Shown here: piece by piece, positions 17,104 to 41,613 of the stretch
Position numbering within the stretch: position 1 is the stretch's first letter
Layout of the letters: every line of letters starts with the position of its first letter
Assembly (NCBI GenBank): GCA_051313645.2
Contig: JBNRSN020000009.1
Span: forward strand, 83,452,001 to 83,516,000
Direction: 5' to 3'
Length of the DNA stretch: 64,000 bases
Source of the DNA: Centroscyllium fabricii
Taxonomy: Eukaryota
The notes under the pieces: generated by a model
What the model was told of the DNA's origin: nothing
Databases searched by the model: none
Seen by the model: the letters and a program-made list of their open reading frames with translations, nothing else
Translations under genes and position numbers: made by a program

Positions 17104-20100
17104 CTATGTGAGCCGTTGGGGTGGCCGGACGATGCGGCCGGCCCATGTTGTGCGTTGCTCCTGGTTCTGCGGTGGAGTGTGGGCGGGTGTTGTTGCGGGA
17201 GGGCGTCCGCGTTGCGGTGGTTGTGCGGGGACTGTCGTCTCGCCCGCTATAACGTGTGCCGGCTTGAGCCAGTCTATTGATAAAGTTTCTGTCCTGTTGC
17301 CCATTTGAAGCTGGAAAGCTTTAGCTCCCGCCCGAAGCACTCTATAAAGGCCATCGTATGGTGGCTGTAGTGGTGATCGGTGTCCGTCGCGCCGGACGAA
17401 GACAAATTTAGCATTTTTAATGCCGTCCGGTACTCGTGCTGCCGGCTCTCTGTGCCGGGCCACTGGTAGTGGTTTGAAAGCTCGTGCCGGGTTGGCAAAG
17501 TCCTTTAAATACTGGTCGGCTGACCAGGGAGCATTTGGTTCGGCTAAAAACTCGCCCGGCACTGTTAGGGCTTGGCCGTATACGAGTTCTGCTGCCGAGG
17601 CGTTTAGGTCCTCTTTGACTGCCGAGTGCAGCCCGAGGAGGACCCATGGGAGACGGTCGGTGCAAGACGCATCCTTGAGGGTGGCTCGCAGTGATGCTTT
17701 CATAGATCGGTGGAACCGTTTGCAGAGCCCGTTAGCTTGTGGGTGGTATGCAGTGGTTCGATGCAAGGTTACCCTGAGGTCGCGGGCGATGGCCGCCCAT
17801 AGTGCTGACGTGAACTGGGGTCCTCTGTCGGAGGTGATGTCGGTGGGCACGCCGAAGCGGGCGACCCAGGTGGCGATGAACGCCCTGGCCAAGTCCGTGG
17901 TGCCAGTGGCAGCGAGGGGGACTGCTTCTGGCCAGCGAGTGTTGCGGTCGACCATGGTCATTACGTGCGTGTGGCCCCGGGATGGCGGTAGTGGCCCGAC
18001 GAGATCAATATGGACGTGGTCAAAGCGTCTGGCCGGCACTGTAAATGTTTCCAGCGGTGCCCTGATGTGCTTATGCACATTGGAGCGCTGGCAGGCAGTG
18101 CAGGAGTTGACCCAGGCGCTGACATCTTTGCGCAGGCCACGCCATACGAACCGGGCCGAGATTAATTTAATAGATGCGCGGGTGCCGGGGTGGGACAGGT
18201 CATGGAGGGTCTTAAAAATGTGCCGCCTCCAAGCGTGGGGGACGACAGGCCTGGGCTGCGGCAGGGACACGTCGCAGCAGACGACGGTGGCAGCGGGGCC
18301 GTGCGCGATTTTGGCCAGGTGGAGGCCGGGGAGGTTTGCTGCTGGGTTGAGCAGGTCGGGGTCAGCCAGCTGGTCTGCGGCCAGCTGGGCGTAATCGACC
18401 ACCATTTGGGCGGCGTTAATGGTGGGGCATGAGAGGCAGTCAGCGACCACGTTGTCGCGGCCGGAAATGTGCTGAATGTCGGTCGTGAACTCCGACACGG
18501 CCGCGAGCTGGCGCTGCTGCCTGGCCGACCAGGGTTCGGCGACCTTAGCCATCGCAAACGTGAGTGGTTTATGGTCGACGAAGGCTGTGAAGTGGCGGCC
18601 CTCCAGGAGGAAGCGAAAATGTCGCACTGCCAGATGGAGAGCGAGTAGCTCCCTATTGAAGGCGCTGTACTTGACCTCTGGGGGCCGGAGCTGCCGGCTG
18701 AAAAAGGCCAGGGGCTGCCACGAGTTGTCGGTCCACTGCTCAAATACGGCCCCGACCGCGTGGTCGGAGGCATCAGTGGTGAGGGCTACTCTGGCGTTGG
18801 GCCTAGGGTGGGCTAGGAGGGTGGCGTTAGCCAGGGCAGTTTTGGTTGCGGTGAAGGCAGTGTCGGCGTCGGCCGTCCACTCTACCACAGTTTTGCCGGA
18901 CTGCCCGCGTGTGGCCTGGTATAAGGGGGCCATGAGAGCGGATGCTCCCGGGATAAAGCGGTTATAAAAATTGACCATCCCCAGAAATTCCTGCAGCCCC
19001 TTAATGGCGTGCGGGCGGGGAAATTCCTGGACCGCCTGCACCTTGGAGGGCAGAGGTATGGCCCCGGTTTGGGAAATGCGGTGGCCGAGGAAGTCAATGG
19101 TTTGGAGGCCGAATTTACACTTAGTGGGGCTTAATATTAGGTCGTGTTCGACCAGGCGCTGGAACAGGGTCCTGAGGTGCAGGAGGTGTTCCTGGGGGGA
19201 GGTGCTGGCCACGAGGATGTCGTCTAAGTAGACGAAAATGAACGTCAAGTCCCGTAGGACCGAGTCCATGAGGCGCTGGAAGGCCTGGGCCGCGTTTTTA
19301 AGGCCGAAGGGCATCCTGAGAAACTCGAAGAGTCCAAAGGGAGTGATAACGGCCGTTTTAGGAATGTCCACCGGGTGCACCGGAACCTGGTGGTAGCCAC
19401 GCACCAGGTCGATCTTGGAGAAGATCGTACAGCCCGCTAGTCTGGCGGAAAAATCCTGGATGTGGGGTACGGGGTACCTATCCGGGGTAGTGGCGTTGTT
19501 TAGGCGGCGGTAGTCGCCGCAGGGGCGCCAACCCCCGCCCGGCTTGGGGGCTATATGGAGAGGAGAGGCCCAGGGGCTGTTGGAGCGGCGGATAATACCG
19601 GGTTGCTCCATGGTGCGGAACTCGGTGCGCGCAATCTCCTGTTTGGCCGGGTCGAGCCTGCGGGCGTGGGCATGGACGGGAGGGCCTGTGGTAGTTATAA
19701 AATGTTCTACCCCGTGTTTGGCCCGGCGGGCGGCGAACGTGGGGTTGGTTAGGGCGGGGAACTCTGCTAAGAGTGTGCCGTAGGCATCGGAGTTCCGAGC
19801 GCGGCATTGGGCGGCCGCGTGGGCCAGGAGTGCGGGCCCTGTGGAGCATGGGATGGTCGACATGTTTTTAATGTTGACCAAGCGGCGCCGGGTCATATCG
19901 ACCAGCAGGCCGTGGGCGCAGAGGAAATCTGCCCCGAGGAGGGGTGAAGTGACCTGGGCTGTGACAAAGTCCCAGGTATACGTGTGGCCTGCAAGTGTAA
20001 TCGTGAGCTTGCGGGTGCCGTACGTTTTGATATTGGAGCCGTTGGCCGCTGCGAGTGGCGGGCCCCGGGTGCCTTGTTTGGCTTCTGCTGGGGAGGCTGG

Positions 20101-20934
20101 CACGATGCTGTGCTGTGCGCCTGTGTCACAGAGGAACCAGAGGCCTGTGCCGCTGTCTGTAACAAAGAGCAGTGCTCCTGTGTGTCCTACAGACATGGTG
20201 GGGGCTGGGGTGGGCCGTGGCTTAAATGCGCATGGCTGGACGCAGCGGTGTGCTTTACTATCGAACCGCGTGTGGTAGTAGCACCAGTCGGTGCTAGAGG
20301 GACGCGGTTGCCTGGGTGGGCGCGGGTCCCTAGGTTCAGGCATGAAGTTAGGCCTGGGGGGCGAGTGGTTGCGCTCTATGGATGCGGAGTTAGGGTCGCA
20401 CGTGGTTGAGCGGGTGCGCTCTGCCTCCATGAGCCTGTCGGCCTCCTCAGCGAGCTCGTCGTCGCTCCGCTGGCCAAGGGCCGCCAAGGACGGCCTGATG
20501 GAGCGGGGTAGTTTGAGGAGGAAAACGGTGCGGAACAGGGAGGCGGGATTGGCGGTGAGCGCTTGCATCTGACCCAAAAGGTCCGATGGGTCTGCGTCCC
20601 CGAGTTCGGGGAGGTCAACGAGCTGGCAGTCGCGCTCAAATTGAGAGGGGGTAAAAAAAATTATGAGCGCGGCCTTAAGGGATTCGTACCTGCCTGTAGT
20701 GGGCACACGCTGTATTTTTGACCACATCCGATCGATCGTCGATTGCGGTAGGGCTGAGAAAACCAGGTCGTAGCGGTCGTCCCCCTGGATGCCATGTGTG
20801 CGGCAGCTGGTTTCAATGCACATGAACCAGGCCGCTGGCCGTTGCTCCCAGAACTCTGGCAGGGTAAGTCTGCGCCCGAAGTTCTGGCCAAGTCCTTGTG
20901 TTCGTGGAGATTGGTTCCTTGCTCTTGCAGTCAT
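17104..20934 (-). CDS. Intact Gag-Pol polyprotein (Gag, PR, RT, RNase H, IN), 1276 aa
   Basis: [18 protein letters not shown] (CHCC); FLCDTGA protease; FSKIDL...MPFGL...[10 protein letters not shown]; TTDAS RNase H; HHCC and D,D,E region (E read as K in NGLCKR). Confidence 0.95.
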
Positions 20935-21012
20935 GTTTTCTCTTTTAAAGTGTCCTTTGGCTGGTGATCCTTGATCCTGCGGCAGCTTTTTTTCCTTGGA
21001 AGTCGTTCCAAT

Positions 21013-21024
21013 TCGGGGTCACCA
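21013..21024 (-). promoter_or_regulatory. Primer-binding site, tRNA-Trp
   Basis: TGGTGACCCCGA, 1 nt after the 5' LTR, complementary to the tRNA-Trp 3' end. Confidence 0.85.
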
Positions 21025-22359
21025 CTGTAGCGCCAGCAAGGCCTAGAAACCACGCGTGAGCCAGAGAGCTGGAGAAAACACTTGTTTAATGCATTAGAGT
21101 TAAACAGGAAAGAGAGTGAACCACTCGAAGCAAGCTTATTTAAACTGCCCGCCGTTGGTGACGTCATCACGCCGGAAGTCGTGGTGACGACATTGCGTCA
21201 CCCGGATGAGCGGGGCCATGCCCCGCGGTTTTCCCGTGGCAGATTCGGTGTCCCAGTGGGCGTGCCGCCACAAGATAATCTTTTTCGTGCTGTTGGGGGA
21301 GGGGTAAATATTGGCCAAGGCACCAGGAGAACTCCCATGCTCTTCTTTGAGTAGTACCATGGGATCTTTTATATCTACCCGAGAGGTTTAATGTCTCCAT
21401 CAAAAGACAACATCTCCGACAGTGCAGCACTCCCTCAGTAGTGCACTGGAGTGTCAGACAAGCACATGTTCTTATAGGATAGGATTTAGAATTTTCAGAA
21501 GGCCGACTCCCTCCCCAACTAAGATAGAATTGGCAGTGTTTTTCAGGAATGGCCAGTCATGTTAGTTCAATGTTTAATACTATATTTAGTGCAATTTAAT
21601 TGATTTGAAGAACATTAACACATTTTAGCTAGCCACCTAAGTTATCTCTATATTTCTTTTAACAAATTCAGATAATAACAAAATAGCTTCAGTTGTGAGG
21701 AATAATTGAGACCTTGGTTTATCATAAAACCTGCTGGTAATGGCTTCCTTAATAAAATACGTGTCTATATTATGGTTTTGTTTCTATAAGTGTATGATGT
21801 ATATTCATAATCCCCTCAGCAAAATTTTTGCATTATATTAATATTTTTAGGCTGCACTGTAAATCAAAGTTCTATAGTTGCATTCAAGTTAGCACTGTAT
21901 TTTTATAGTGTAAAGTATAGTGTCCTATCAAGTCTATGCTCCCAAAGTTAATTTACAAGGGATTGATTTTAACATGCTGTAACGGGGTGGTAACAACCTC
22001 AAAATGGAATCAGTAGACTTAGTGCCAGTTAACCCTAAAGCTAGCTCATGTCGCTATCACTTTCACAGGGGCCTACCTGTATCAGGCGGTAGACCCCTTT
22101 TAACATAAAAGGAGGACATAGGATCCGAATACCATTTTAGGATAGTACTGGTTAGCAGCATGTGCCGTTCATGCCCTGACTAGTTTCATTGCCGATAGAG
22201 CCAAATAGGCCCTGGAAAGGTAAGTTTGAAATTATATTTGTGAGACTAGGAGGAGGAGGAGGTGTGCTCCTACAGACCTCACAAAAATACCATGGCCTAG
22301 GCACGTCCCCCTCCTCGCCAAGGATCTACCTGCAGCTGCTGCCAGCGTCCAAGCCTGCC

Positions 22360-24055
22360 TGTAAGGGGTGTGCGCCGTGTGTTTTATTCACGACTTGGGG
22401 TCCTTTATTGCCTTGCTCTAGCCGTCTGCCAGGCCTCGCGCAATAAACCTCCTCCCCCGTGAGCGGTTCGAATCGCTCACCCTTACGGTTCTCGACGCTG
22501 GACTTAGATGCAGGAAGAGAGACGAGATGTACAAAGATTGGACTCAGGTTGACTTGAATAAGGGTTTCAAAATTTGGATGATTTCATTACAGTGAATCAC
22601 AAGTTCATATACAGCAATTAACTTGTACGTCATATAACAAACACAGTATGAAATGCAAACATTCGTAGCCCAAATTATATATATATATATGAATACACGA
22701 TTAACTTATAGGATGGGGAACACACGGCACATCGTAAATTGGGGCAAACACTCTATAGATTCAACCAAATAAACCACCCTCCCCTCTATTGCCTAGCTAT
22801 GTCCAGGTGTGTAGGATCAGGGCACATGCTCACCACTCGGTCAAACTCGGGGTCAGCTACGAAGTTCTTCATCCTTTCGGCTGCAGCGTCGGTCGCCACG
22901 TGGCTGTGGAAGATTCGGGAGTCCACTTGTTTGCTTCTCCCTCTTGGCGGCGGCTGTGTCTGCTCAGGCTGGCCCTGGGCAGGTTCCTCAAGGCTTCTCT
23001 ACCTCCTCGCACCAACCACACCGTCTCCCTGGCTGAACCGGGCCCTGTGGTAAGCCGATCCTGCCCTCTCTAGCCGAACTGTGACAAGTCTTAGCTTACT
23101 GCTTTTACCCATGCATCGAACGCCAGCAACTTGTGGTGCCAGACAATCGACTACCTCTCCAGCGATGGCCCAGCCCTGATGCGATGCCACTGCCAGAACC
23201 TGCACCCTGCTCGCCCTGCACCCTGCTCGCCCTGCACCCAGAGATCCGAACGGGAGCCTCCGAAGAGAAACCCTCCCAAAAGTCACTGCTGAAAGTTCAA
23301 GAAGTCCTTCAAGTTCTGCAAGAGAACTGTACCTAGTTCCAAGAGCTTCCCAAGAGCTCCAACCGCTTCCAGAGAATCTGAGTCACAAGAGAAGAGCTAC
23401 CAGTTCCAAGAGTCAAGCCTAAAGTCATCAGAGTTTTTCCAAGAGCAGAAGAGAGAGAACTGTGCAAACTGTCTGCTAGTTATACCCCAAAAGTTGATTG
23501 CTTAATGCCTTTCCACTCATTGCAATGTATTGTCTTATTTAAAAACGGTAACTGCTTCTTTGTCCAGCTAACCTGCTGAGATGGCTTGAGAGCAGCCCTA
23601 ACCGCTCCGGTTAGTGTTTCATTATCTAAAGAGGGTGCAAATTGCTTTATTGCTTAGCTCGCGGTACAATTTCTAAGCCTGGCTATTTGGGCCAGTTAGT
23701 CCATATTTGCGATATATTGGGTGTTTATCATCTGGGTGCATTTTCTTTGTTGGGCTAAGCGGTTCTGGGGGGGGGGGCTGGTTAGTTCTTTACAATCGAA
23801 TACTGGCTTTTGGCGCCCCCATGTCTGGGTTTTCGCGCGCTTTCTGCAAGGCTTTGAAAATACATATGTGGTTTCGTTTTCGGCTCTGGCCGTTATGTCA
23901 TGTGGTCCGGCGGCCATCTTTTGAGGCCCCTTTTCTTTCATCAAGCCGCAGCTTGTTTTTCTCTGCTGCTGACTGCTTAATAAAAATGCTTAATCCATCC
24001 ATCTGTCTCTTGTCTTTATGAATTCCATTTGGATCGGGAATGTTGCGACCTTACA
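22360..24055 (-). repeat. 3' LTR of the retrovirus-like element
   Basis: TGTAAG...CTTACA; direct repeat of 31563-33260. Confidence 0.95.
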
Positions 24056-24928
24056 GTCCCTCCTGTTGATTAGCATAACCCCGCTTAGCGAATCAATTAA
24101 ATAAAAGGTTGAGCAAGATTCCCCGATTCTCCACACCTCAACTTCCCTGAAACTTAAACTAACTCTTGCCCCATGACACATGCGGTTCCCATTCCCTTCG
24201 GTCTAACTCGCGTTGCCTTCACCCTGGGCAACATATATGTACACAACCGTTCCTTACACCTCCTGGTTCCTTCCACGTTCTGCCAGGCCGATGCCTTCGT
24301 TTCCACCTGTACATATCTTTTATTGTTGTAAAAGGAAAACCACACAACCTAACCGAAAATTTAAAACACACACATATATCCCCTCATCAATCCCACCATT
24401 TGTCCCCAAAGGTCTTTCCAGCGTTCTGGCGGTCTTTCCGTAGCCACCACCATCGGCTCGCTGGGATCTTCTATCCCTCAACGAAACAAGTCCTCCTGCC
24501 GATGCTAGCGCTGGTCCTGGGTGTGACGATCTTGATCCGGGGCACAGTAACCAAGTTTCGCTGCGGCAAGCTCCGACGTGCTGGAATGCTCCATTGAGTC
24601 TGTTCCCAGCCGTCCTGGGCATCTGCTCCTTACTCCCCGGTGTGGCCCCGATAGGCCAGTTCATATTTGATGACCGCACGCGTCATCAGAATCTCCACAT
24701 CTCTGGGTCCTGTAACTAAATAAAGGGGTGCCGGCCTCCCAAGAGCGCCTGGCTGTGGTGAGCTGCGCACACATCCTGGACGGATCCAATATTAACTAAC
24801 ATTCCCCTTCACCTCTATACTAAACGTCACACCATTAAAACTTCAAAACTTAATTCGGGCTATTCCCTTAACACTACCGAAACTTATCCATACCTATAAT
24901 ACAGTGCCGCCTCCCCCGGGCGGCCTAC

Positions 24929-27900
24929 CTATCCCCTGTCAGGGTCGCAGCGGGCCGCTCCCTGTGGCGGTGCGTCGCTGGCCCTTCCCTTTGATCCCCC
25001 GCAGCCTGTTGCTGCTTGTCGGGGATATACAATTATTCTCTGGCGGGGGCATTTTCCCCCTGTTCTGTCCCTATACCTGAGGGCATAGGACGGTTCTGGC
25101 CAAGCCTTTCTGGGCTGGGGTTTCCTATCCGATCGACGGAGGATGCTTTTAGGTACTGCCCCCTGGGCCGACGAACTGAGGATCAGGCCAGATCGTGCTG
25201 CAGCCTGTGACCCCGTCACATCTGCCAGCATCGACGTTCCCTCCTCCAGCTCCGCCGACGAACTGAGGACCGAGCCAGGTTGTGCTGCAGCCTGTGACTC
25301 CTTCACAGCTGCCAGCACCAACCTCTCTTCCTCCAGCTTCGCTTCCCTGGGACCGAGAGCCCCCTGGGCCGACGACCTGAGGACTGGGCCAGATCGTGCT
25401 GCAGCCTGTGACCCCGTCACATCTGCCAGCATCGACGTTCCCTCCTCCAGCTTCGCTTCCCCGGGACTGGGATCTCTTGCGGCTTCCGACCTCATCTCAC
25501 CTGTCTCCCAAGGTGGTGAGTCTCCGCCCGCTATCCCTACCTCTTTGGCACTTGAGTTGAGAACGGAACCCCTGTCCTCCGACCCCTCCTTCTCCTCTGC
25601 GACTGGGTCCAACACTTGGTCAGGTTGGTCAGTCAGGTCCAACAATTGGTCGTGTTGGTCAATCGGGTCCAACACTTGGTCGTGTTGGTCAGGCTCTTCC
25701 CCATCTGAATCCCACACAGCACGGGAGACCCTCCTCTCCTCCATAGGGGCCTCTCCTCTCACGCAGGCTACTTTACCTGCCTGCGCGACCTGTGGTCCTA
25801 CACTTGGCTGGGCGTTCCTACTCACAGGGCTTGCCCCTGTGGTCGACCCCTGCATGCCCGACTTATACCTTTTGCATTGGTTAATATGAAACCACTTCGT
25901 GCGTCGGGGCACCTTCACTGCATACACCATGGGGCTTGCCTTGTCTACAATGCTGTAGGGCCCCATGTACAGTGGCTCTAAACTCCCTACCCGGGCATAG
26001 TTCCTCACCATGACCAGGTCTCCTACTTCCCATTCTTGCGTTCTTCGGGGCTCCAGCAACAGCTTGTTCCCCTGATGCTGTCTGCCCATGTTCCCTGCTG
26101 CCTGCTCATGTACTTGCTTTAGGTGCTCGAACAGATTTTGGGCAAACCTGTCCTTCTTTACCTCTTCGAGCTGGCCTTCCGTGAGCACCGGGGCTAGTAC
26201 ATGAGTGGGGGTGCGCATGGCCCTTCCAGTCATTAACTCGTGCGGGGAATACCCCGTACTTTTCGACTGGCTGGCCCTGATCCCCATGAGGATTAAAGGC
26301 AGGATCTCCGCCCATTTCTGGGGCGAGCCCATGGCCTCTTTCCTCAACCTTTCCTTAAGGGTCCGGTTCATGCGTTCCACAATCCCTGATGACTGGGGGT
26401 TGTGCGCTACGTGCCATTTCCCTTTGATGCCTAAGAGCATGAGGGTGTTCTGCATGACTTGGCCGGTGAAGTGACTCCCCTGGTCAGACTCCACAAAACG
26501 GGGAAGTCCCCACCGTGAGAACACCTCCCGGACCAAGATCCTGGCAGTACCTAAGGCCGTAGCCGTCCTACAGGGGAAAGCTTCCACCCACTTGGAGAAC
26601 ACGTCCACCAGGACGAGACAATATTTATAGCCTCCCTGGGCGGTGGGTAGGGGCCCTATATAGTCGACTTGTATCGACTGCCATGGTCCCTCCACCCTCC
26701 TGACGTGACCCATCTGCGCTTTCCTCCTTTGGGGGTCTGGGTTGTTCGCAGCGCACACCAGGCAGCTTGCACAGAACTCGCGGGCATCTTCCCTGAGTCC
26801 CGGCCACCACCCTGCCTGCTCTACCCGTTGCCACGTAACCTCTGGCCCAGGGTGCCCTGCTCCTGGACCCTCGTGGGCCAGTTGGAGAAATTCCCTCCTG
26901 TGCTGCTGCGGCACAACCCATTGTTCCTCCCTGAACAACATTCCTTCCTTAACGGAGAGGGTCGCCCTACTGTACGGGCCCTCTACCTGCTTGTCCTCGC
27001 TAATTGCTTTGAGGACAGCTTTTAAAACGGGATCCTGGGTTTGAACCGTCTTTAGGTCCAAAGGCAGGGGTACCCTGGGGCGGTTCCCCTCCTTATCCCG
27101 GATCGCGGCCACGGGTCCGGACCCATAGGGGTCCCAGAAAGTGCCTTCCCGAGCACCCTCCTTGGCCAGTGCATCCGCCCGCTGATTGCCTCCCCCACAG
27201 GGTTCCGTGGAAGAGTGCGCCTTCACCTTGTGGATGAAGATCTCCCCTTCTTCCCCTACTGCCGCTAGGATCTTCTCCAACAAGGGCTTTACCGCTAATG
27301 GCCGCCCATCCGCGGAAGTGTACCCGCGACGTGACCATATGGCCAGATACTCCGTGCATGAGTTGCACGTAAACATGCTATCTGAACAAATTGTGTACGG
27401 GGTTGGGAAGGTCTCGGGGTGGGTCACCACGTATGCCACCGCCGACAGCTCGGCCTGCTGCGCGCTCATGGTGCGGGGAAGCTTAACCGCCAAGGCAATG
27501 TCTGCCGTAGGGTCAAAAATCCCGCAGCCCGTGAGTCGTTCGCCAGCCACCACTGTGCTGGAACCATCAACATAAATCTCGCGGCCCGTGGGATGTATCC
27601 CGGCTCGCAGACCTATGTTCACCTCCCACACCCCCTCCACGGAACACCGATGGGTCGTTCCGGGGTACATTAAATTTGCTGCGAGCTTGGGCTCACACAA
27701 GCCCTCCACTTTTAAATCCATCTGGGACAGGAGAAGAGTCCAGCGCGCAATCCTCGCGCTGCTCACGGTCCCATCCTTAATCCTTCCATCCAGGAGCATC
27801 CTGGTGGGTGTGTGGTGGGTGAGGAGAGTGATGGGAGAGGTTCCCGTGAAGATTAGTGATCTCTTCACGGCCCAATGCGTGGCTAGAAGATGCCATTCAC

Positions 27901-29527
27901 AGTTGGAGAACCCCCTCTCCACGTCTGTGAGTACCCTTGAGGAATACACTACCGGTCGCAGCTTTCCGTGCCGCTCTTGGAGCAGCACAGCACCCAAGCT
28001 GTCTTCGCCGGCGGCTACCTCCAGGGAAAACTCCTTCCCCCCCTCTATGGCCCCCAGGGCTGGCGCGGTTTGCAAGTCCCTCTTCAACTTTTCAAACGCC
28101 GCCTGGCAACCCTCGTCCCATGACCACCCAACTCCCTTATGTAAGAGTCGGAGCAGCGGAGCTGCTGTGGCTGCATAGTCCTCAATGAAGTCTCTGCAAT
28201 ACCCGGTCAGTCCCAAAAAGGACCTCAGACCCTTTACGGTGGTAGGGATCGGTAGCTCCTGTACCGACTCCCTCCTGGCCTTATCTATGGCCCTTTCCCC
28301 AGCGCGGATGGTTAAACCCAGAAATTTTACTTCTGTCTGGCCGATCCGTGCCTTTTTCGGGTTTACTTTAAAACCCTTCCTAGCCAGTAATTCCAGCAGC
28401 TCGCCTAGCAGTGGCAAGTGCTCTTCCCTAGTGTCCGTGAACAAAAGTATGTCGTCCACGTACTGCACTATCTGATTGGGCTGGCTAAACTCCTTTAAAC
28501 TCCCTGCCATACAATGGTGGAAAATGCTGGGGCTGTTGTGGAAGCCTTGAGGTAGGCAGTTCCACGTGTACTGCTGCCCTTTAAAAGTAAAGGCAAACTT
28601 GTACTGGTCCTCCCTCCGCAGCGGGATGGACCAAAACCCATTGGAAATATCCAATACCGTGAACACCGTGGCGGAAGCAGGAATACTTCCGATCAGGTCG
28701 GCAACTGCTGCCACCATGGGTGCGCAGGCGGGGATGTTACTGTTGAGGACCCGGTAATCCACCGTGGCTCTCCATGAGTTGTCTGGCTTCCTTACGGGCC
28801 ACAACGGAGAGTTCACATGGGTGGCTATCGGCCTCAACACGCCCTGCCGCACCAGTGAAGACATCGCTGTCTCCAGATCGGACTCAGCTTCCTTAGGGAA
28901 GTTATACTGTTTCTGGGGTCGGGACATGGGATCCCCCTGTACGCTAACCTCAAACCCTAGGACCCTCCCGCAATCGTGCTTATGGGTCACAAAGGCGTTT
29001 ATATTATAAGTCACGGCCGCATGCATGTCGGCCGGAACCCCCTTGGACAAACTTTCGAGGTCGTAACCTCCAGACGGCTTCATGGTGCATAGGGTCCCCT
29101 TCTCTTCTTCCTCCCCTATGACCACAACTTCACCTCTTCCACTCTCGGCTGCCCATAAACAGTGGTTCCTTAGGTCGATCATAATCCCGTGTGCTCCCAG
29201 AAAATCTGCCCCGACTATTCCTCTACCACCTCCTTCTTCCCATTTCAGCAGGATGCACTCCCACGTGGTGTGGAGCGCTCCTAACTGAACGGAGAGTGGC
29301 CTAGAGCGCGCGCCCCCCTGTTCCTTGCCCGTAAACCCTGCTAATGCAAAAGGGACTCCGGTGGACATTGGGGAATTAAACGGCTTCTCTGTATGGATCA
29401 CGGTGCATGAGGCCCCCGTATCCAACAGATAATTCCCCTCCTGTCTCTCCACCTCCATTTCCACCAGAGGTCTCCTCCACGCATCATAACGGAGCGGACA
29501 CAGGTAAATGGGCAGCACGGGTCTTAG
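24929..29527 (-). CDS. Intact Pol: PR, RT, tether/RNase H-like, second RNase H, IN and a repetitive C-terminal extension
   Basis: YLLDTGAS; NSPLWPVRKPD, LDISNGFW, LPQGFHNSP, QYVDD; tether with non-catalytic LEVAA; IYVDGSS...AQQAEL...ICSDS...KVKAH...GNQRADALAK; integrase HHCC, QVDYIGPL, ESDQG, GIVER, and MGPY. Confidence 0.93.
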   Translation of the reverse strand, partial: LRPVLPIYLCPLRYDAWRRPLVEMEVERQEGNYLLDTGASCTVIHTEKPFNSPMSTGVPFALAGFTGKEQGGARSRPLSVQLGALHTTWECILLKWEEGGGRGIVGADFLGAHGIMIDLRNHCLWAAESGRGEVVVIGEEEEKGTLCTMKPSGGYDLESLSKGVPADMHAAVTYNINAFVTHKHDCGRVLGFEVSVQGDPMSRPQKQYNFPKEAESDLETAMSSLVRQGVLRPIATHVNSPLWPVRKPDNSWRATVDYRVLNSNIPACAPMVAAVADLIGSIPASATVFTVLDISNGFWSIPLRREDQYKFAFTFKGQQYTWNCLPQGFHNSPSIFHHCMAGSLKEFSQPNQIVQYVDDILLFTDTREEHLPLLGELLELLARKGFKVNPKKARIGQTEVKFLGLTIRAGERAIDKARRESVQELPIPTTVKGLRSFLGLTGYCRDFIEDYAATAAPLLRLLHKGVGWSWDEGCQAAFEKLKRDLQTAPALGAIEGGKEFSLEVAAGEDSLGAVLLQERHGKLRPVVYSSRVLTDVERGFSNCEWHLLATHWAVKRSLIFTGTSPITLLTHHTPTRMLLDGRIKDGTVSSARIARWTLLLSQMDLKVEGLCEPKLAANLMYPGTTHRCSVEGVWEVNIGLRAGIHPTGREIYVDGSSTVVAGERLTGCGIFDPTADIALAVKLPRTMSAQQAELSAVAYVVTHPETFPTPYTICSDSMFTCNSCTEYLAIWSRRGYTSADGRPLAVKPLLEKILAAVGEEGEIFIHKVKAHSSTEPCGGGNQRADALAKEGAREGTFWDPYGSGPVAAIRDKEGNRPRVPLPLDLKTVQTQDPVLKAVLKAISEDKQVEGPYSRATLSVKEGMLFREEQWVVPQQHRREFLQLAHEGPGAGHPGPEVTWQRVEQAGWWPGLREDAREFCASCLVCAANNPDPQRRKAQMGHVRRVEGPWQSIQVDYIGPLPTAQGGYKYCLVLVDVFSKWVEAFPCRTATALGTARILVREVFSRWGLPRFVESDQGSHFTGQVMQNTLMLLGIKGKWHVAHNPQSSGIVERMNRTLKERLRKEAMGSPQKWAEILPLILMGIRASQSKSTGYSPHELMTGRAMRTPTHVLAPVLTEGQLEEVKKDRFAQNLFEHLKQVHEQAAGNMGRQHQGNKLLLEPRRTQEWEVGDLVMVRNYARVGSLEPLYMGPYSIVDKASPMVYAVKVPRRTKWFHINQCKRYKSGMQGSTTGASPVSRNAQPSVGPQVAQAGKVACVRGEAPMEERRVSRAVWDSDGEEPDQHDQVLDPIDQHDQLLDLTDQPDQVLDPVAEEKEGSEDRGSVLNSSAKEVGIAGGDSPPWETGEMRSEAARDPSPGEAKLEEGTSMLADVTGSQAAARSGPVLRSSAQGALGPREAKLEEERLVLAAVKESQAAAQPGSVLSSSAELEEGTSMLADVTGSQAAARSGLILSSSAQGAVPKSILRRSDRKPQPRKAWPEPSYALRYRDRTGGKCPRQRIIVYPRQAATGCGGSKGRASDAPPQGAARCDPDRG

Positions 29528-29579
29528 TCATTGGGTTTCTACGTAAGGGGCTGCGGTGCCTGCGGAACCGGTGGCAACC

Positions 29580-29925
29580 GCTGCCTTCCCCTGGGAAGCC
29601 ATATACAACTTCATGGCCCCCAGCGTAGACTCAATCGTTTCGGGACTTAAAGTCGCACCGGCACCTCCTGTGGGAGTGGGTGCTCGGGTTGGGGCTGCCT
29701 TTCCCTGGGAAGCCATATAAAACTTCATGGCTCCCAGCGTGGACTCAATCGTTTCGGGACTTAAAGTCGCACCGGCACCTCCCGTGGGAGCGGGTGCTCA
29801 GGTTACCGCTGCCTTCCCCTGGGAAGCCATATAAAACTTCATGGCTCCCAGCATGGACTCAATCGTTTCGGGACTTAAAGTCGCACCGGCACCTCCCGTG
29901 GGAGTGGGTGCTCGGGCTGGGGCTG
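29580..29925. repeat. Three tandem 114-bp (38-aa) repeats at the gag C-terminus
   Basis: GGGAAGCCATA recurs at 29593, 29707 and 29821. Confidence 0.9.
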
Positions 29926-31540
29926 CGGGAGCTCTTTCCTTGACCTCCCTCCACGGGGCTCTACAGTCTCTGCGCCAGTGGCCTGCCTTCCCGCACCTAT
30001 GACACGTAGACTGCCCCGGGTTGCCCCCCTCCTGATGCCACTCTCTCTGCACTGGGGCGTCTGCGTTATTCGCATACACCTTCCCCTTATCGCAGTGCAT
30101 CACCGAACTTCTGGTGTTCTTATACGCGACCGTGAGTCAGTTGAGGACCGTCTCCTCTGTTGCCTGGGCGTCGGTGGGATCAAACCACACCTTTGCCTGC
30201 TCTCTAACGGCTGGTAGGCTGTTGGCAACGATACACCGGAGCCACTGGGCTCTCCCGGCATCGCGCAAAACAGCCCGTGCAGGTACATCTGGGCAGCTGC
30301 GCTGATACACAGGCCACAGCCTCCCGGCGAAAACCCGTGGGGGTTCTCCCTCCATCTGCACGGTCCTACCCAGCCACACAAACGGACCTTCATCGTCCAT
30401 CCCCAATACTTCTAAGACCTCGTCCCGTAGGTCGTTGTAGCACTTATCCCCCCTTTTGCTCTCGTCGGAGAGACACTGAAGGATAGAGCTATCTAGGGAG
30501 AAAAGCAGCATCCTGGCTTGCTCCCCTTCGTCACAGCCGTTTACCGCTACGGACTGTTCGACCTCTCTAAAATGCAGGGACGGATCGCCTGCTGCGGACA
30601 GATTCCTAAAGTGCCCGATCATGCCCCTTATTTGTTGCGAGCTATGGGGCATTATAACCTCATTCATGATGGGCCCGGGGTCCCCATCCACGGTGTCGGG
30701 ACCCCGCCTCGTTTCTCGAACCGGACACATGGGTGCCGGGTCCGGATCCCCTACTCTGGGAACCTCCACCGCCACCTCCTCTCTGTTCTCTTTCTCCCAT
30801 GCTTGCGTATAGTGGGGTGATCGCGCGGGGAGCGCGGGGGCTGGTGCCTCCGGCGCCCTCCTCGGCTTTGGCTTCGGGGGTTCCTTAACCACCTTTACCT
30901 CACCCACCGATGGGTCGATCAGGCACACTAGACCATTTGACTTGCTCAGGGCCTCCCTGAGGTCCTGAATCTCTTTTAAACAGGAGCTATGATCAGCGTC
31001 CTCATACTTTGTCTCGAGGGACATCTTATATGCTGCCCTCATTCCCAGCAAATTCTCGTCCTGGGCCTTTAACTGGCCACTTAGGCGGACGCACCGTTCC
31101 CTGAGCTTCCCTTCGCTCGACATGGCCTCTACCACCTGCCGCTCTAGGAGCTCAACCCTGGCCTCATGGCGGCTGGTCTTCACCTGGCGCTCTCTATTTA
31201 GAGCCTCGAGTGCGGTGATTAACTGCTGCCCCCGAGACCTTTTCCTCCACTTCGAGGACTAACCCTTTGATCTGCGCGGTCTGCGCCGCAATCACCTGGT
31301 CCGAAAGTTGGACCTGCCTTTTATAGCACATAAGCCATACCGCCTTCTCCACTGACTTCTTATGCCCCTTGCTACCCGTCCAACGGATAGCTGCGTCCAG
31401 TGCACGTTTGTCTGCCAGCAGGTCCCCAATCCACTGCTTTGTCAGGTTAACCTTACTAAATACATAATCGGCGATTTTCTCATCCATTTGGTTCCTTTTA
31501 TTCAAGGCTGAGTCCAACACATCTCTTTCCTGCTGCCAAC

Positions 31541-31558
31541 GTCCCTTCGTGGTCGCCA
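31541..31558 (-). promoter_or_regulatory. Primer-binding site, tRNA-Arg
   Basis: TGGCGACCACGAAGGGAC, 18 nt, 4 nt after the 5' LTR; complementary to the vertebrate tRNA-Arg(UCG) 3' end as recalled. Confidence 0.8.
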
Positions 31559-31562
31559 TTTC

Positions 31563-33260
31563 TGTAAGGGGTGTGCGCCGTGTGTTTTATTCACGACTTG
31601 GGGTCCTTTATTGCCTTGCTCTAGCCGTCTGCCAGGCCTCGCGCAATAAACCTCCTCCCCCGTGAGCGGTTCGAATCGCTCACCCTTACGGTTCTCGACG
31701 CTGGACTTAGATGCAGGAAGAGAGACGAGATGTACAAAGATTGGACTCAGGTTGACTTGAATAAGGGTTTCAAAATTTGGATGATTTTATTACAGTGAAT
31801 CACAAGTTCATATACAGCAATTAACTTGTACGTCATATAACAAACACAGTATGAAATGCAAACATTCGTAGCCCAAATTATATATATATATATATGAATA
31901 CACGATTAACTTATAGGATGGGGAACACACGGCACATCGTAAATTGGGGCAAACACTCTATAGATTCAACCAAATAAACCACCCTCCCCTCTATTGCCTA
32001 GCTATGTCCAGGTGTGTAGGATCAGGGCACATGCTCACCACTCGGTCAAACTCGGGGTCAGCTACGAAGTTCTTCGTCCTTTCGGCTGCAGCGTCGGTCG
32101 TCACGTGGCTGTGGAAGATTCGGGAGTCCACTTGTTTGCTTCTCCCTCTTGGCGGCGGCTGTGTCTGCTCAGGCTGGCCCTGGGCAGGTTCCTCAAGGCT
32201 TCTCTACCTCCTCGCACCAACCACACCGTCTCCCTGGCTGAACTGGGCCCTGTGGTAAGCCGATCCTGCCCTCTCTAGCCGAACTGTGACAAGTCTTAGC
32301 TTACTGCTTTTACCCATGCATCGAACGCCAGCAACTTGTGGTGCCAGACAATCGACTACCTCTCCAGCGATGGCCCAGCCCTGATGCGATGCCACTGCCA
32401 GAACCTGCACCCTGCTCGCCCTGCACCCTGCTCGCCCTGCACCCAGAGATCCGAACGGGAGCTTCCGAAGAGAAACCCTCCCAAAAGTCACTGCTGAAAG
32501 TTCAAGAAGTCCTCAAGTTCTGCAAGAGAACTGTACCTAGTTCCAAGAGCTTCCCAAGAGCTCCAACCGCTTCCAGAGAATCCGAGTCACAAGAGAAGAG
32601 CTACCAGTTCCAAGAGTCAAGCCTAAAGTCATCAGAGTTTTTCCAAGAGCAGAAGAGAGAGAACTGTGCAAACTGTCTGCTAGTTATACCCCAAAAGTTG
32701 ATTGCGTAATGCCTTTCCACTCATTGCAATGTATTGTCTTATTTAAAAACGGTAACTGCTTCTTTGTCCAGCTAACCTGCTGAGATGGCTTGAGAGCAGC
32801 CCTAACCGCTCCGGTTAGTGTTTCATTATCTAAAGAGGGTGCAAATCGCTTTATTGCTTAGCTCGCGGTACAATTTCTAAGCCTGGCTATTTGGGCCAGT
32901 TAGTCCATATTTGCGATATATTGGGTGTTTATCATCTGGGTGCATTTTCTTTGTTGGGCTAAGCGGTTCTGGGGGGGGGGGGCTGGTTAGTTCTTTACAA
33001 TCGAATACTGGCTTTTGGCGCCCCCATGTCTGGGTTTCCGCGCGCTTTCTGCAAGGCTTTGAAAATACATATGTGGTTTCGTTTTCGGCTCTGGCCGTTA
33101 TGTCATGTGGTCCGGCGGCCATCTTTTGAGGCCCCTTTTCTTTCATCAAGCCGCAGCTTGTTTTTCTCTGCTGCTGACTGCTTAATAAAAATGCTTAATC
33201 CATCCATCTGTCTCTTGTCTTTATGAATTCCATTTGGATCGGGAATGTTGCGAGCTTACA
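31563..33260 (-). repeat. 5' LTR of the retrovirus-like element
   Basis: Direct repeat of 22360-24055, followed on the minus strand by the PBS. Confidence 0.95.
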
Positions 33261-34063
33261 TGCCGACATTCCTGTAGCCATGGAATACCCATTAGGGATC
33301 CACAGCTCACCACTTAGATTCACATGAGGCCCGGGCCTCAAAATTTTGTGCGGCTTCTTGCCGCCTGAACTGGTGGGCAGCTGACGTACAGCGCTAGTTC
33401 GCCGCATGAAAGTTAAAATCTACCCGTACATTGAAAGGTGATTCATATTATCATCAGGGTTGCCAACTCTAGTTTGAAGTATTCCTGGAGATTTGATCAT
33501 GTGACATTTGATCACATGACATCCGATCACATGACACCTGCCCACTGCTTGCAAATGTTATTACATTTACATTAGTTGAGTGTCATAGCCTCACCAAGCC
33601 CTGAATAAAATATTTGACTTTTTGTTTTACAGTGAGATGAAGAACATAATTTAGAATTCAAAGAAAGAACACAAAATAGAAAGATTTAAGGATAAATAAT
33701 TTTTCAATAAAAACTACTTCTGTGATGTTTCTACACCAGACTGCAATGAGAAACATGTGGTAACTGTGGTAAACCACTGTGTTATATATCTGTACCATAT
33801 CTATAACCTTCTATGACCCTATCTGTGTGTATATAGTTCTCCCTGTATAGCTTGTCTGGGCATGCCCGTGCTGACTCCGCCTGTGGCTCCTCCCCCCTGG
33901 ACCAGATATAAAGGTGACTGTCTCTCTCCACCCGATCATTCCGGGAGCAGTCGACTAGCTGGGGCATGCCCATGTCTTAGCGAATAAAAGCCTTTTATTC
34001 ACCCATAACTTCTCGTCTCTGAGGTTATTGATAAGGTATCAATTTTATTCGCTAAATTTCATC

Positions 34064-37000
34064 ATGGAGCTAATGCTAAAACCAGCGACGTTAGAACTGG
34101 ATCCCCAAACACCAGGCGCCTCTAACACGTTTACGCTCTGGTTCAACTGCTTCGAGGCGTACCTCGAAGCTACCGCGTCGATCGTCCAGACGGACAGAGA
34201 CAAACTGCGCCTTCTCAACGCCCGGGTGGGCCCCCAGGTGTACTCAATAATTGCGGATGCTACATCCTATACTGAGGCGGTCCGAATCCTGAAGGCCGAA
34301 TATACCCGGGCACCGAACATCGTCTACGCCAGACACCTCCTGGCCACCAGAAAGCAGCAACCCGGGGAATCGGGCGTGGAGTTCCTACGAGCGCTGAGAG
34401 TCCTCTGCTGGGCCTGCAACTGTAAGTCACAGACGGCCTTGGTGCACTCCGAAAGCCTCATCAGGGACGCTAATGTTATCGGCCTCAGGTCAGATTATAT
34501 CAGACAGAGACTGTTGGAGCAGAATGGCCTGGACCTGCAGGCGACGATTGAACTTGCAAACTCGCTGGACTTGGTGTTACATAATATGGCCGCTTACTCC
34601 TCTGACCACTTGGGCACATCGCGGACGCCGCCATCTTGGACACAGCCGGCCGCATTGCGACCAGCGGATGAGATGACTGCGGCCACAACCTCCAAGGGCT
34701 CAAAGTGTTATTTCTGCGGCCAGGCTCAGCACCCCAGGAGAAATTGCCCGGCAAGAGACGCGGCCTGCTCCAAGTGCGGAAAGAAGGGCCACTATGCGAA
34801 GGTATGCAGAGCGGCAGCGCAATCGATCTCCAAACCGGGCAGCGCCGCGTGTGGCCCGTGGGGGCAGCCATCTTGGACACAGCCATCCCCCACACAGCCC
34901 GCCGCATGGGAGCAGACGCCATCTTGGACACAGCCATCTTACACACAGCCCACCGCGTGGCGGCAGCCATCTTGGGACCAGTCCCCAGACCTCTCAACCG
35001 ACTCGACCGACCCGATACTGGCCTCCATCACCTTTGACCAGAACAGGAGCCAACCACTCAGCAAATCGATGATGACAGTGTAGGTGAATGGGCAAAGTAC
35101 GGACTGCCTTTTCGACAGTGGGAGTACGGCGAGCTTCATACACCCCGATACGGTAAAGCGCTTCTCCCTAACAGTCACACCGGCTAGCCAAAAAATTTCG
35201 ATGGCTTCAAAGTCCGAATCTGCGGACGTCTGCGATCGCTGCGTTGTGACCCTGACAGTGCGGGGCGCGCATTTTCAAAATTTTAAACTATTCGTGCTGC
35301 AGCAGCTATGCGCTCCCTTACTGCTGGGCCTCGATTTCCAGTGTCACCTCCAGAGCATGACTATGGCGTACGATGGGCCCCTTCCCCCGGTCAGCAACCA
35401 GCGCTCCCCGCAGTGCCCACAGCACGCTACCTGCGGTCTCTCGACCCTTAAGGTTGCCCCTCCCTCACTCTTCGCCAACCTCACCCCGGACTGCAAGCCT
35501 GTCGCCACCAAAAGTAGGCGCTACAGTACCGGGGGCAAAGGTTCATTAAGTCTGAGGTGAAACGGCTCCTGAAGGAAGGGGTCATCGAGGCCAGTAATAG
35601 CCCCTGGAGGGCGCAGGTAGTGGTGGTAAAGACCGGAGCCAAGCACCGAATGGTCGTTGACTACAGTCAGACCATTAATCGGTTCACGCAGCTAGATGCG
35701 TATCCCCTTCCCCGCATAGCGGACATGGTGAACCAGATAGCACAGTATCGGGTCTTCTCGACCATCAATCTGAAGTCTGCGTACCACCAGCTCCCCACCC
35801 ACCCAGAGGACCACCACTATACTGCTTTCGAGGCAGACGGCCGCCTCTATCACTTCCTCAGGGTTCCGTTTGGTGTCACCAACGGGGTCTCGGTCTTCCA
35901 AAGGGAGATGGACCGAATGGTTGATCAGTACGGACTGCAGGCCACCTTTCCGTATCTTGATAATGTTACCATCTGCGGCCACGATCAGCAGGACCACGAC
36001 ACCAACCTCCAGAAATTTCTCCACACCGCCAAAAATCTGAACCTGACCTATAACACGGAAAAATGTGTGTTCAGGACAACCCGCCTGGCCATCCTCGGCA
36101 GTGTTGTGGAGAATGGGGTCATCGGTCCCGACCCGGACCGCATGCGCCCCCTCATGGAGCTCCCCTTCCCCCACTCCCTCAAGGCCCTGAAAAGGTGCCT
36201 GGGTTTCTTTTCTTATTATGCCCAGTGGGTCCCCAATTATGCGGACAAGGCCCGCCCACTTATTAAATCAACCTCCTTTCCACTGTCGGCAGAGGACCGC
36301 ACGGCCTTCTGCGGCATAAAACAGGACATTGCAAAGGCCGCGATGCATGCTGTGGACGAGTCCATCCCGTTCCAGGTAGAGAGCGATGCGTCCGACTTTG
36401 CCCTGGCCGCCACCCTTACCCAGGCGGGCAGACCCGTGGCCTTCTTCTCGCGCACCCTCCAGGGCCCCAAGACCCGACACTCTTCCGTTGAGAAGGAGGC
36501 CCAGGCCTTTGTTGAAGCAGTGCAACACTGGAAGCACTACCTGGCCGGCAAACGATTTACCCTGCTGACTGACCAACGCTCGGTCGCTTTTTTGTTCAAC
36601 AACAAAGAGCGGGGTAAAATCAAGAACGACAAGATATTGAGGTGGAGAATTGAGCTCTCTGCTTTCAATTACGATATATCTTGTACCAGCCCGGGAAATT
36701 CAATGAGCCCCCAGATGCCCTGTCCCACGGTACATGTGCCAGCGCACAAGTGGACCGTCTCCAGACCCTGCACAACGACCTCTGCCACCCGGGAGTCACC
36801 AGGTTCGTCCACTTTATCAAGTCCCGCAACCTCCCTTACTCCATCGAGGAGGTCAAGACCATGACCAAGAACTGCCGGGTCTGTGCAGAGTGCAAGCCGC
36901 ACTTCTTCCGGCCGGACCGGGCACACCTGATCAAGGCCACCCGCCCTTTTGAGCGACTCAGTGTCGACTTTAAAGGGCCCCTCACCTCCTCCAACCGCAA

Positions 37001-37941
37001 CATGTACTTTCTAAACGTCATTGACGAGTACTCGCGGTTCCCCTTCGCCATCCCCTGCCCGGACATGACCTCCTCCACGGTCATTAGGGCGCTGCACAGC
37101 ATCTTCTCCCTGTTCGGGTACCCCAGCTACATCCATAGCGACCGGGGGGCCTCTTTCATGAGTGACGAGCTGCGTCAGTTTCTGCTCGCCAAGGGCATCG
37201 CCACGAGCAGGACTACCAGCTATAACCCCCGGGGGAACGGACAGGTAGAGAGGGAGAACATCACCGTCTGGAAGGCCACCCTATTAGCCCTACGGTCTAA
37301 AGGCCTCCCAGTCTCCCGCTGGCAGGACGTCCTCCCCGAAGCGCTCGACTCCATTCGGTCACTCCTATGTACGGCCAATAACGCCACCCCTCACGAGCAA
37401 CTTTTTGCCTTCCCTAGGAAGTCGGCTTCAGGGACCTCGCTGCCATCATGGCTATCGTCCCCAGGACCCGTCCTGCTCCGGAAGCACGTGAGGAGCCATA
37501 AGTCGGACCCCCTGGTCGAACAGGTCCACCTCCTGCACGCCAACCCCCAGTACGCCTACGTGGCGTACCGACGGGAGGGAGGATACGGTGTCCATCAAGG
37601 ACCCGTCACCCTCGGGTGCCCCCGAGACCAGTAGGACCCATCAGCTCGCACCCCCCCCGCCCACCGCCACCTTTGGGGCACCAGCATCACGGTACGTCAT
37701 ACCCCTCGAGGCACCAGCACCACGGTACACCCACCCAGCACCTGCAGGCAGCACGGTATGGCCCCCTAACCTACACACCCGCCAGCCGGATGACGAATGG
37801 GAGAGCGCGCCAGTGACCGTTACCGCAAGGGGCCCCGCATCGGAGCAAACACCATCGCCGACACCCCCACCACCGACTCCGCCGCCAACAGTGCGCCGCT
37901 CAACAAGGCAGACCAGGCCACCCGACAGACTGAACATTTAA
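34064..37941 (+). pseudogene. Element B gag-pol (complete domain set, one stop and several frameshifts)
   Basis: Two knuckles CYFCGQAQHPRRNC / CSKCGKKGHYAKVC; CLFDSGS; FPYLDNV; VESDAS; SVDFKGP, IHSDRG, NGQVER. Confidence 0.9.
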
Positions 37942-38064
37942 TGGTTGCACAGCATTTACCCCGCCGGAATTTATTTAAAAAAAAGGGGTGAATGTGGTAA
38001 ACCACTGTGTTATATATCTGTACCATATCTCTAACCTTCTATGACCCTCTCTGTGTATATATAG

Positions 38065-39990: not shown

Positions 39991-40501
39991 CCCTGTATAG
40001 CTTGTCTGGGCATGCCCGTGCTGACTCCGCCTGTGGCTCCTCCCCCCTGGACCAGGTATAAAGGTGACTGTCTCCCTCCCCCCGATCATTCCAGGAGCAG
40101 TCGACTAGCTGGGGCATGCCCATGTCTTAGCGAATAAAAGCCTTTTATTCATCCATAACTTCTCGTCTCCGAGGTTATTGATAAGGTATCAGTAACCGTA
40201 ATTACCAGTATGTATATAGTAATGTGTTCATCGGCAGCTCTGCACATTGTGTGTATATATATGGATGTATTCACCTGCAACTCTGTACCTTATGTGTAAG
40301 GCCAGGTCGGCCACACCTCTAACTCCTCCCCTCAGGTGGGAGCTGATAGGTGAGGGCCACCCTGCCCCCGCTCATTCTCGCCTTGAACTCGACAGGAGAC
40401 TAGCTCCATTATAAGTGAATAAAAGCCTGTAGTTTGGGTAACTACTCGTCTTTCTTGTCTGGATTGATGATAGGTCAATTTTATTCACTTAAATTTAAAA
40501 C

Positions 40502-41303: not shown

Positions 41304-41613
41304 TGTGGTAACCATATTGTATGTAATACCACTGCATTATTGTAATCAATAATGGGCTGCGTATATGTATACGCAGCCCTGTAATACCGGTGTAATACTG
41401 TAGGGAGCCAGGTCAGCCACACCCCTAACTCCTCCCCCAGGTGAGGCCTTATAGGTGGAGACTGGCCCAGGCTCCTCATTCCTGTTCAGATGTTCGTTCG
41501 GAGAGTAGCTCCAATCTTAGTGATTAAAAGCCTATAGTTACGGTAACTACTCGTCGTGTCTTTTAATCTCGAGGTATTGACGATACGTCAATTTTAATCA
41601 CTAAAAGTTTAAA

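Follow-up and report, generated by a model that had tools for sequence, protein, structure and literature searches.

The window analyzed here is a 64,000-nucleotide stretch of the genome of the shark Centroscyllium fabricii (assembly GCA_051313645.2, contig JBNRSN020000009.1, positions 83,452,001 to 83,516,000), and it contains on its minus strand, at 33260-22360, a 10.9-kb provirus. This provirus is very probably a recent, gag-broken copy of an endogenous retrovirus (ERV) from an early-branching canonical lineage, one that lost its env gene stepwise and, by analogy with mammalian families, likely retrotransposes inside germ cells. The env-less form makes up a separate lineage rather than a simple deletion in one copy, and intermediates of env loss coexist in one genome with a young env-bearing sister. 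The overall pattern is that of an env-loss megafamily, as known from mammals.

Loss of env within the family

The first-pass annotation, made from the letters of the window, had noted that no env-like frame fits into the 0.87 kb before the polypurine tract. As far as open frames go this stands, the longest sense frame in the 873-nt spacer between the pol stop and the 3' long terminal repeat (LTR) being 120 codons, but the spacer holds the decayed start of an env gene. It matches residues 1 to 138 of a shortened envelope protein, the mini-env, of a related subfamily (tblastn 34.5% identity, E 4.7e-20; DNA matches of 78 to 81%), and it matches the full env of a sister subfamily as well (E 3e-5). 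With a remnant in the window and env in its sisters, the element is not primitively env-less.

The sisters form a graded series. Subfamily B, exposed by a search with a 78%-identical relative, has a Pol 81% identical to that of the window copy and the same primer binding site and polypurine tract. Its pol is followed by an env frame of 841 to 863 codons, open in 9 of 13 loci (13 of the 20 loci fetched), and its copies are young, with LTR pairs 98.9 to 99.8% alike (8 of 10 measurable) and 4-bp target duplications on sister copies. No ATG precedes the signal-like stretch of the full sister env (L037:3926-6448), so a spliced upstream start is likely needed, an arrangement similar to that of the SnRV env. 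One locus with a Pol 85 to 89% identical retains a near-full env with a frameshift. Subfamily C (L045, L152, L153, L155 and L156; Pol 90 to 92%) carries an open mini-env of about 327 codons, in which a signal-like start and the N-terminal part are joined in frame to the membrane anchor and the fusion core is deleted, and further copies retain the env N-terminal part only. The ratio of nonsynonymous to synonymous change (dN/dS) is 0.08 for the env core of B against its frameshifted relative; that of the mini-env, 0.28 to 0.64 in six pairs, is suggestive of selection, although neutral changes that arose once the copies had inserted confound it. In one contig from a different organism (run X19), 1,308 bases are missing at roughly the site of the mini-env deletion, the short side of the match being 49 letters.

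Rooted on B, a tree built from the pol DNA of 33 copies runs from full env through mini-env and N-terminal remnants to decayed remnants, with ladder nodes at 99 to 100, and places the window copy among the decayed-remnant forms.

The size of the env-less lineage was estimated with a 21-base probe across the gag/pol junction, which has 9,496 exact matches in the genome (control, 0), dispersed along contig 1 on both strands; the probe is present in 19 of 20 copies picked by integrase and misses subfamilies B and C. A search with the integrase core returned at least 150 matches at 99 to 100% identity, and a single contig holds nearly all of them. For the env core, a probe present in 13 of 13 B loci gives 960 exact matches genome-wide (control, 0), which puts the env-less type and the env core at roughly 10:1; 148 scored env-core hits lie at 99 to 100% identity. 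Head-to-tail arrays of two to four proviruses occur, spaced about 9.2 kb for env-less and 11.0 kb for env-bearing copies (contigs C1, C1044 and C113).

For a closer look, 40 of the first 52 junction matches listed on contig 1 were taken; the 12 skipped were integrase-list copies or tandem neighbors, so intact young copies are under-sampled. The first-pass annotation had proposed looking for env in other genomic copies, where siblings with env would make its absence here a simple deletion. The env core is absent from all 40 junction-picked copies and from all 19 complete integrase-picked ones. The sister subfamilies, with Pol 81 to 92% identical, do carry a full or shortened env, but a simple deletion does not describe a lineage of about 9,500 copies. 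The polypurine tract is detectable in 35 of the 40, at a distance from the junction of about 2.5 kb (5 copies), 4.5 to 4.6 kb (8), 5.5 to 5.7 kb (19) or 5.7 to 6.6 kb (3), compared with 5.48 kb in the window. Their LTR pairs have a median divergence of 0.54% (30 of 40 measurable), and gag is open in 21 and both gag and full pol in 3. Two recurrent classes with shared breakpoints make up 14 of the 40 (L103-L142), with integrase deleted in 9 and protease to RNase H plus integrase deleted in 5; these derivatives have likely been moved in trans. Among the 20 integrase-picked copies, integrase lies 2,529 to 2,706 nt from the LTR in 19, and a gag of about 640 codons is open in 15. Pol is under purifying selection, with dN/dS of 0.04 to 0.07 in all six pairs, both between subfamilies and between two env-less copies.

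Drawing on retrovirus biology, the life cycle of such an element can be sketched. The LTR would drive a full-length RNA, from which Gag would be translated, along with Gag-Pol through occasional read-through of the UGA-C stop that separates the two genes. Particles would assemble within the cell, tRNA-Arg(UCG) would prime reverse transcription, the second RNase H would cut while the tether serves a structural role, and integrase would insert the DNA, giving the 4-bp duplication. With the fusion core gone, then the anchor, and what remained decaying, the lineage would have become confined to the cell; the loss went along with a copy number about tenfold higher than that of the env-bearing sister.

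Several points weigh against this account. The root of the ladder on B is assumed, B being the most divergent, and the pol ladder takes no account of recombination among copies. The 10:1 ratio is rough, since the probes lie in different genes and count exact matches only, and haplotype duplicates and tandem arrays may inflate both counts. Finally, B is young and numerous, so Env could be supplied in trans. On that view, env-less copies would still be infectious, borrowing Env from the co-resident sister, which has at least 960 env cores and has the type of primer binding site and the polypurine tract in common with them; the integrase-deleted classes show that trans-mobilization occurs within the family. 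Yet the env-less copies outnumber their supposed helper about tenfold, the LTRs of the two forms have a match of only about 60 bp, so co-expression is not implied, and the env-less branch has a long ladder of change of its own, with pol under purifying selection. We regard dependence on a helper Env as unlikely. Still less probable is that the high count stems from genome duplication, tandem arrays or assembly redundancy: head-to-tail copies do exist and the assembly comprises 1,598 contigs, but matches are dispersed on both strands of contig 1, LTR pairs have small and differing divergences, 4-bp target duplications are found on the window and sister copies, and the flanks of the window provirus match none of the loci fetched.

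Structure and expression signals of the window provirus

The features of the provirus, in the order of its own reading and in window positions, are as follows.

33261..33264, no strand: target-site duplication TGCC, upstream of the 5' LTR
31563..33260, minus: 5' LTR, 1,698 bp
31541..31558, minus: primer binding site complementary to tRNA-Arg(UCG), overlapped by the first ATG of the gag frame
29531..31559, minus: gag, with a predicted coiled-coil start, one CCHC zinc knuckle and three 114-bp repeats; broken
29528..29530, minus: in-frame UGA at the gag/pol border, context CAA-UGA-CUA, likely read through
24929..29527, minus: pol, 1,532 codons, no stop
29195..29479, minus: protease (DTG; Pfam RVP / gag-asp_proteas below cut-off, plus motif)
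28307..28795, minus: reverse transcriptase core (LPQG, YVDD; Pfam RVT_1, E 3.4e-35)
27722..28120, minus: tether, an old Ty3-type RNase H minus its acidic catalytic residues (Pfam RT_RNaseH/RT_RNaseH_2, plus residues)
27152..27580, minus: second, complete RNase H (D-E-D-H-D; Pfam RNase_H, E 5.6e-19)
25865..26914, minus: integrase, with HHCC zinc finger, D,D35E core and GPY/SH3 end
24932..25855, minus: Pol tail, low-complexity and tandem repeats, about 310 codons
24340..24770, minus: env N-terminal part, decayed remnant (tblastn and DNA matches)
24056..24067, minus: polypurine tract, common to env-bearing sister subfamily B
22360..24055, minus: 3' LTR, 1,696 bp
22356..22359, no strand: target-site duplication TGCC, downstream of the 3' LTR

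The first-pass annotation had described a young element with LTRs about 99% identical and a pol uninterrupted for over 1500 codons, and both statements hold. The LTRs, with TG..CA ends, differ by 10 substitutions and 4 gap columns over 1,699 columns (99.4% alike), and the provirus is flanked on either side by the 4-bp duplication. Their divergence of 0.59% corresponds to an insertion age of about 1.3 million years at the mammalian rate of 2.2e-9, or about 13 million years at 2.2e-10, the rate assumed for sharks in PMC4422223. The single 1,532-codon pol frame encodes, by Pfam, protease, reverse transcriptase (RT; LPQGFHNSP, QYVDD), an RT_RNaseH-type tether, RNase H, and the zinc finger and core of integrase (IN). 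The LPQG/YVDD motifs, the degenerate tether and the second complete RNase H read from the letters alone are thereby borne out by the Pfam domains and a residue check: the acidic sites of the tether are A, H and H in the provirus, compared with D, E and D in an adjoining Gypsy element, and the second RNase H retains its full set. The gag of the window copy is disrupted by a frame change near 31.2 kb and by in-frame stops at 30137-30139 and 29798-29800, leaving this copy unable to supply its own Gag. No accessory frames were seen in the element.

The primer binding site fits the 3' end of a tRNA-Arg(UCG) gene present in the genome. That of most siblings matches a second Arg-UCG variant, of which there are 83 pattern matches in the genome; ARAGORN, run on three loci of this variant, called one as Arg(tcg) and one as undetermined and made no call for the third. 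The primer binding site and the first gag-frame ATG overlap (31541-31559, and likewise in siblings L011-L030), so the leader is almost absent, and in siblings the second Arg-UCG variant also alters the first Gag residues. Elsewhere, tRNA-Arg-like 3' ends are arrayed about 1.9 kb apart on contig C811 at 22.7-24.7 Mb. The gag and pol genes lie in one frame with a UGA between them, and the context CAA-UGA-CUA is found in 20 of 20 siblings. The UGA-C stop is also kept in the sister subfamilies, in 10 of 10 B loci and in C, where the junction was reached in two of five loci. Judging by this sequence context, the stop is likely read through.

Around the provirus, the window holds an adjoining Ty3/Gypsy element of the ordinary kind, whose gag-pol frame has 1,304 codons and one RNase H (17104-21018, minus strand), a dense nest of further Gypsy elements at 33959-52405, and an Arg/Glu/Ser-rich frame of 252 codons at 59525-60283 (minus strand) that may be a host exon.

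Placement of Pol and type of the sister Env

The closest relatives of the provirus Pol are one protein at 86% identity, followed by frog and coelacanth proteins named 'NYNRIN-like' (RT 52 to 55%), with others at 38 to 45%. Phylogenetic comparison used a quick search over 84 RT rows hand-chosen from 230 extracted RTs, and two 28-row trees, one from RT to RNase H and one of RT plus tether (careful search). SnRV is represented by P0085, which has 5 of 5 SnRV motifs, and Loki by four proteins labelled by Loki motif only; the foamy rows are SFV and FFV. In the RT-plus-tether tree the element falls inside the canonical retroviruses (100/99) and Loki is separate (100/99), and the other two trees likewise place the element inside canonical retroviruses. 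None of the three joins it to the class I, foamy or ERV-L-like groups; its companions are frog and coelacanth ERVs, in an early fan whose branching order is unresolved. A grouping with Loki is rejected by the approximately unbiased (AU) test (p=0.011). A clade with SnRV, whose RT is 45% identical, is absent from the best trees but not rejected (p=0.122). The RT motifs are of the SnRV kind (LDISNGFWSI/LPQGFH.SP/QYVDD) and not of the Loki kind (PFGY.NSP/IYVDD), as compared with the supplement of PMC7947760.

The integrase tree puts the element in the early fan again, with Loki IN joining the frog and coelacanth relatives at weak support, and both RT and IN lie outside the foamy clade as sampled by SFV and FFV. 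With two RNase H domains and an RT outside the Gypsy clades, the element is no member of Ty3/Gypsy. The element is, on its sequence, a canonical ERV of the early-branching 'SnRV-like/Huo' grade, and membership in SnRV's own clade is not claimed.

The first-pass view of a retrovirus-type Pol, branching early and distinct from ordinary Gypsy, thus agrees with the trees and the dual RNase H, and the well-described Gypsy clade it named as an alternative home is not where the RT falls. Its further proposal of an env-less lineage at the retrovirus/retrotransposon boundary fails on the position of the RT inside canonical retroviruses, the rejected grouping with Loki and the env remnant. The idea of an Odin-like retrotransposon primitively without env and close to where retroviruses arose, to which the dual RNase H, the lack of an env frame, the early-branching position and an integrase scoring higher against Loki IN (211 to 218 bits) than against SnRV IN (124) might point, is barely credible given the env remnant, the env of the sisters, the LPQG motif in place of PFGY.NSP and the AU result, Odin itself not having been placed. 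Dual RNase H is common to all retroviruses and so is not diagnostic of Loki. The frog 'NYNRIN-like' matches were considered as Loki and dropped, as their RTs are LPQG-type and group with the element. A true Loki RT was sought in this genome, where the best matches reached 35 to 42% and the top ones fetched were other canonical ERVs or the family itself.

Beyond this genome, a scan of viral contigs found no relative of the element, and a metagenome scan returned 48 loci of 29 to 41% identity, whose motifs read as gammaretrovirus-like and none of which matches the sister Env. Exact 31-mers of the provirus pol occur in nine other organisms (runs X1-X20), and long pieces from two of them are 92 to 96% identical. 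This spread may reflect a wide presence in related hosts or horizontal transfer.

The sister Env begins with a hydrophobic stretch and has a furin site near residue 382, an extended region of heptads, a part rich in cysteines and, at its C terminus, a membrane segment. Past the furin site there are about 450 residues; gamma-type transmembrane proteins are far shorter past their cleavage site. In ESM Atlas the Fusion_gly, Baculo_F and Gypsy-Env clusters ranked first (0.92 to 0.94; 201 to 217 shared features), against a background in which 4 to 10% of shuffled proteins reach 0.9. Read by eye and unscored, the order of motifs and cysteines agrees with that of the Loki-Bsp Env over the part that begins shortly ahead of the cleavage region and ends at the stalk. 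Pfam and PDB sequence and profile searches with the sister Env gave no relevant match. Two AlphaFold models of the ectodomain are both unreliable (pLDDT 31.0 and 34.9). With the second, as a lead only, Foldseek placed foamy Env (top), RSV F and HMPV F in 9 of the first 10 PDB rows, all at a non-significant E of at least 0.2, and among viral models a torovirus spike (E 7.7e-5) and a fish paramyxovirus F (E 3.1e-3) came first. Taken together, the Atlas features, the motif reading and the low-confidence folds suggest that the sister Env is probably of the F type (Loki-, foamy- and paramyxovirus-like). A Pfam Fusion_gly search of the genome found no match, but it also missed the sister's 960 env cores and is therefore uninformative.

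An immunoglobulin (Ig) fold for the Env N-terminal part was considered and rejected (Atlas 0.75 only, none in Pfam); comparing this part with the Ig-like tail of a frog protein showed no similarity, since scores as high came from 401 of 1,000 shuffles. Named Env homologs come from two sources only, skate (87%) and sawshark (64 to 68%). Env pieces are fused to Niban-1-like and cadherin-related gene models of the sawshark (P0283 and P0284), which are probably annotation artifacts and possibly exonized proviral DNA. A more distant ERV in the same genome, L146 (RT 53%), carries a decayed env with about 30% identity across residues 293-829, which means that this type of Env spans at least two lineages.

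Implications and comparison with known systems

Env loss followed by intracellular spread is a known mechanism. What is new is its scale in a cartilaginous fish, the presence of every intermediate together with a young sister that bears env, and the pairing of a canonical RT with an Env that is likely of the F type. With 9,496 copies, each up to 11 kb long, and leaving solo LTRs aside, one env-lost family makes up about 1% of a 7.2-Gb (7.21 Gb) genome; the ERV content of the elephant shark is about 0.007% (PMC4977317). Such bursts may contribute to the large genomes of sharks and rays. The superspreader rule derived from mammals becomes testable in a single genome that offers every stage of env loss along with a young control that still bears env.

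The sister Env also touches the open question of where retroviral envelopes come from. Loki Env has no overall similarity to retrovirus Env, and four scenarios were left open (PMC7947760). If the sister Env is of the F type, then an envelope of the sort that Wang and Han took to be peculiar to Loki goes with a canonical RT; together with the F-related fold of foamy Env (PMC11468914), this would favor those of their scenarios in which an F-type Env predates the split of Loki and retroviruses. A bolder combination is speculative and rather doubtful as a whole: that an early-branching canonical lineage of sharks and rays retains an F-type envelope, which would make such a fusogen the ancestral retroviral Env, later replaced in other orthoretroviruses, that this genome holds the entire living transition from virus to retrotransposon, and that the fusion-dead, anchored mini-Env stayed open in copy after copy and may have blocked receptors against the infectious sister.

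Among known systems, the nearest are SnRV-like ERVs. SnRV uses an Arg primer and the element has an Arg primer site, although the best trees do not make the two sisters (RT 45%). The canonical RT motifs LDISNGFWSI, LPQGFH.SP and QYVDD agree with those of SnRV in the supplement of PMC7947760. The SnRV-like ERVs, or clade Huo, take in snakehead retrovirus, CmiERV lineage I, and ERVs of frogs and coelacanth (PMC4422223, PMC6001957, PMC4977317). An env-less SnRV-like element is known from a frog transcriptome (PMC4131045) and an old SnRV-like ERV from the elephant shark (PMC4422223); clade Huo has been described (PMC6001957), as have the SnRV-like grade and the low ERV content of the elephant shark, whose roughly 100 to 700 ERV insertions contrast with the thousands of young copies here (PMC4977317). 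In the literature searched, from which most subscription papers and the repeat databases were absent, neither this family nor an F-type Env paired with an SnRV-like RT was found to be described, and excerpts of PMC12193657, PMC10435555, PMC12583693, PMC11905727 and bioRxiv 2023.10.26.564294 contain nothing on the family.

Loki has a tether, second RNase H and broad IN type in common with the element (PMC7947760), and the sister Env follows the Loki-Bsp Env motif by motif, by eye; the RT motif and clade differ, however, and the sister Env has an extra N-terminal part of about 280 residues. Loki was not found in three chondrichthyan genomes (supplement of PMC7947760). Odin resembles the element in its dual RNase H and gag-pol only content, but is a sister of Loki present in 1 to 6 copies in sea anemones without env (PMC9040795), whereas the element retains a remnant of env and its RT is canonical. 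Foamy viruses have an LPQG/YVDD RT and long LTRs like those of the element, and form separate RT and IN clades. They are not known to have a CCHC-knuckle Gag or a gag-pol fusion by in-frame stop, in contrast to the element, whose Gag has a CCHC knuckle and is joined to Pol across such a stop. The closest parallel in way of life is with the mammalian megafamilies, which besides HERV-H include IAP, MusD and MERV-L as further env-less examples. In mammals, as in the case of HERV-H, env loss is associated with a switch to intracellular replication and growth to megafamily size (PMC4335370). Env decay, a large gain in copies and non-autonomous derivatives are found there as in the element, with differences in retroviral clade, host class and type of Env, and with the intermediates and the env-bearing sister of the shark family all present and young.

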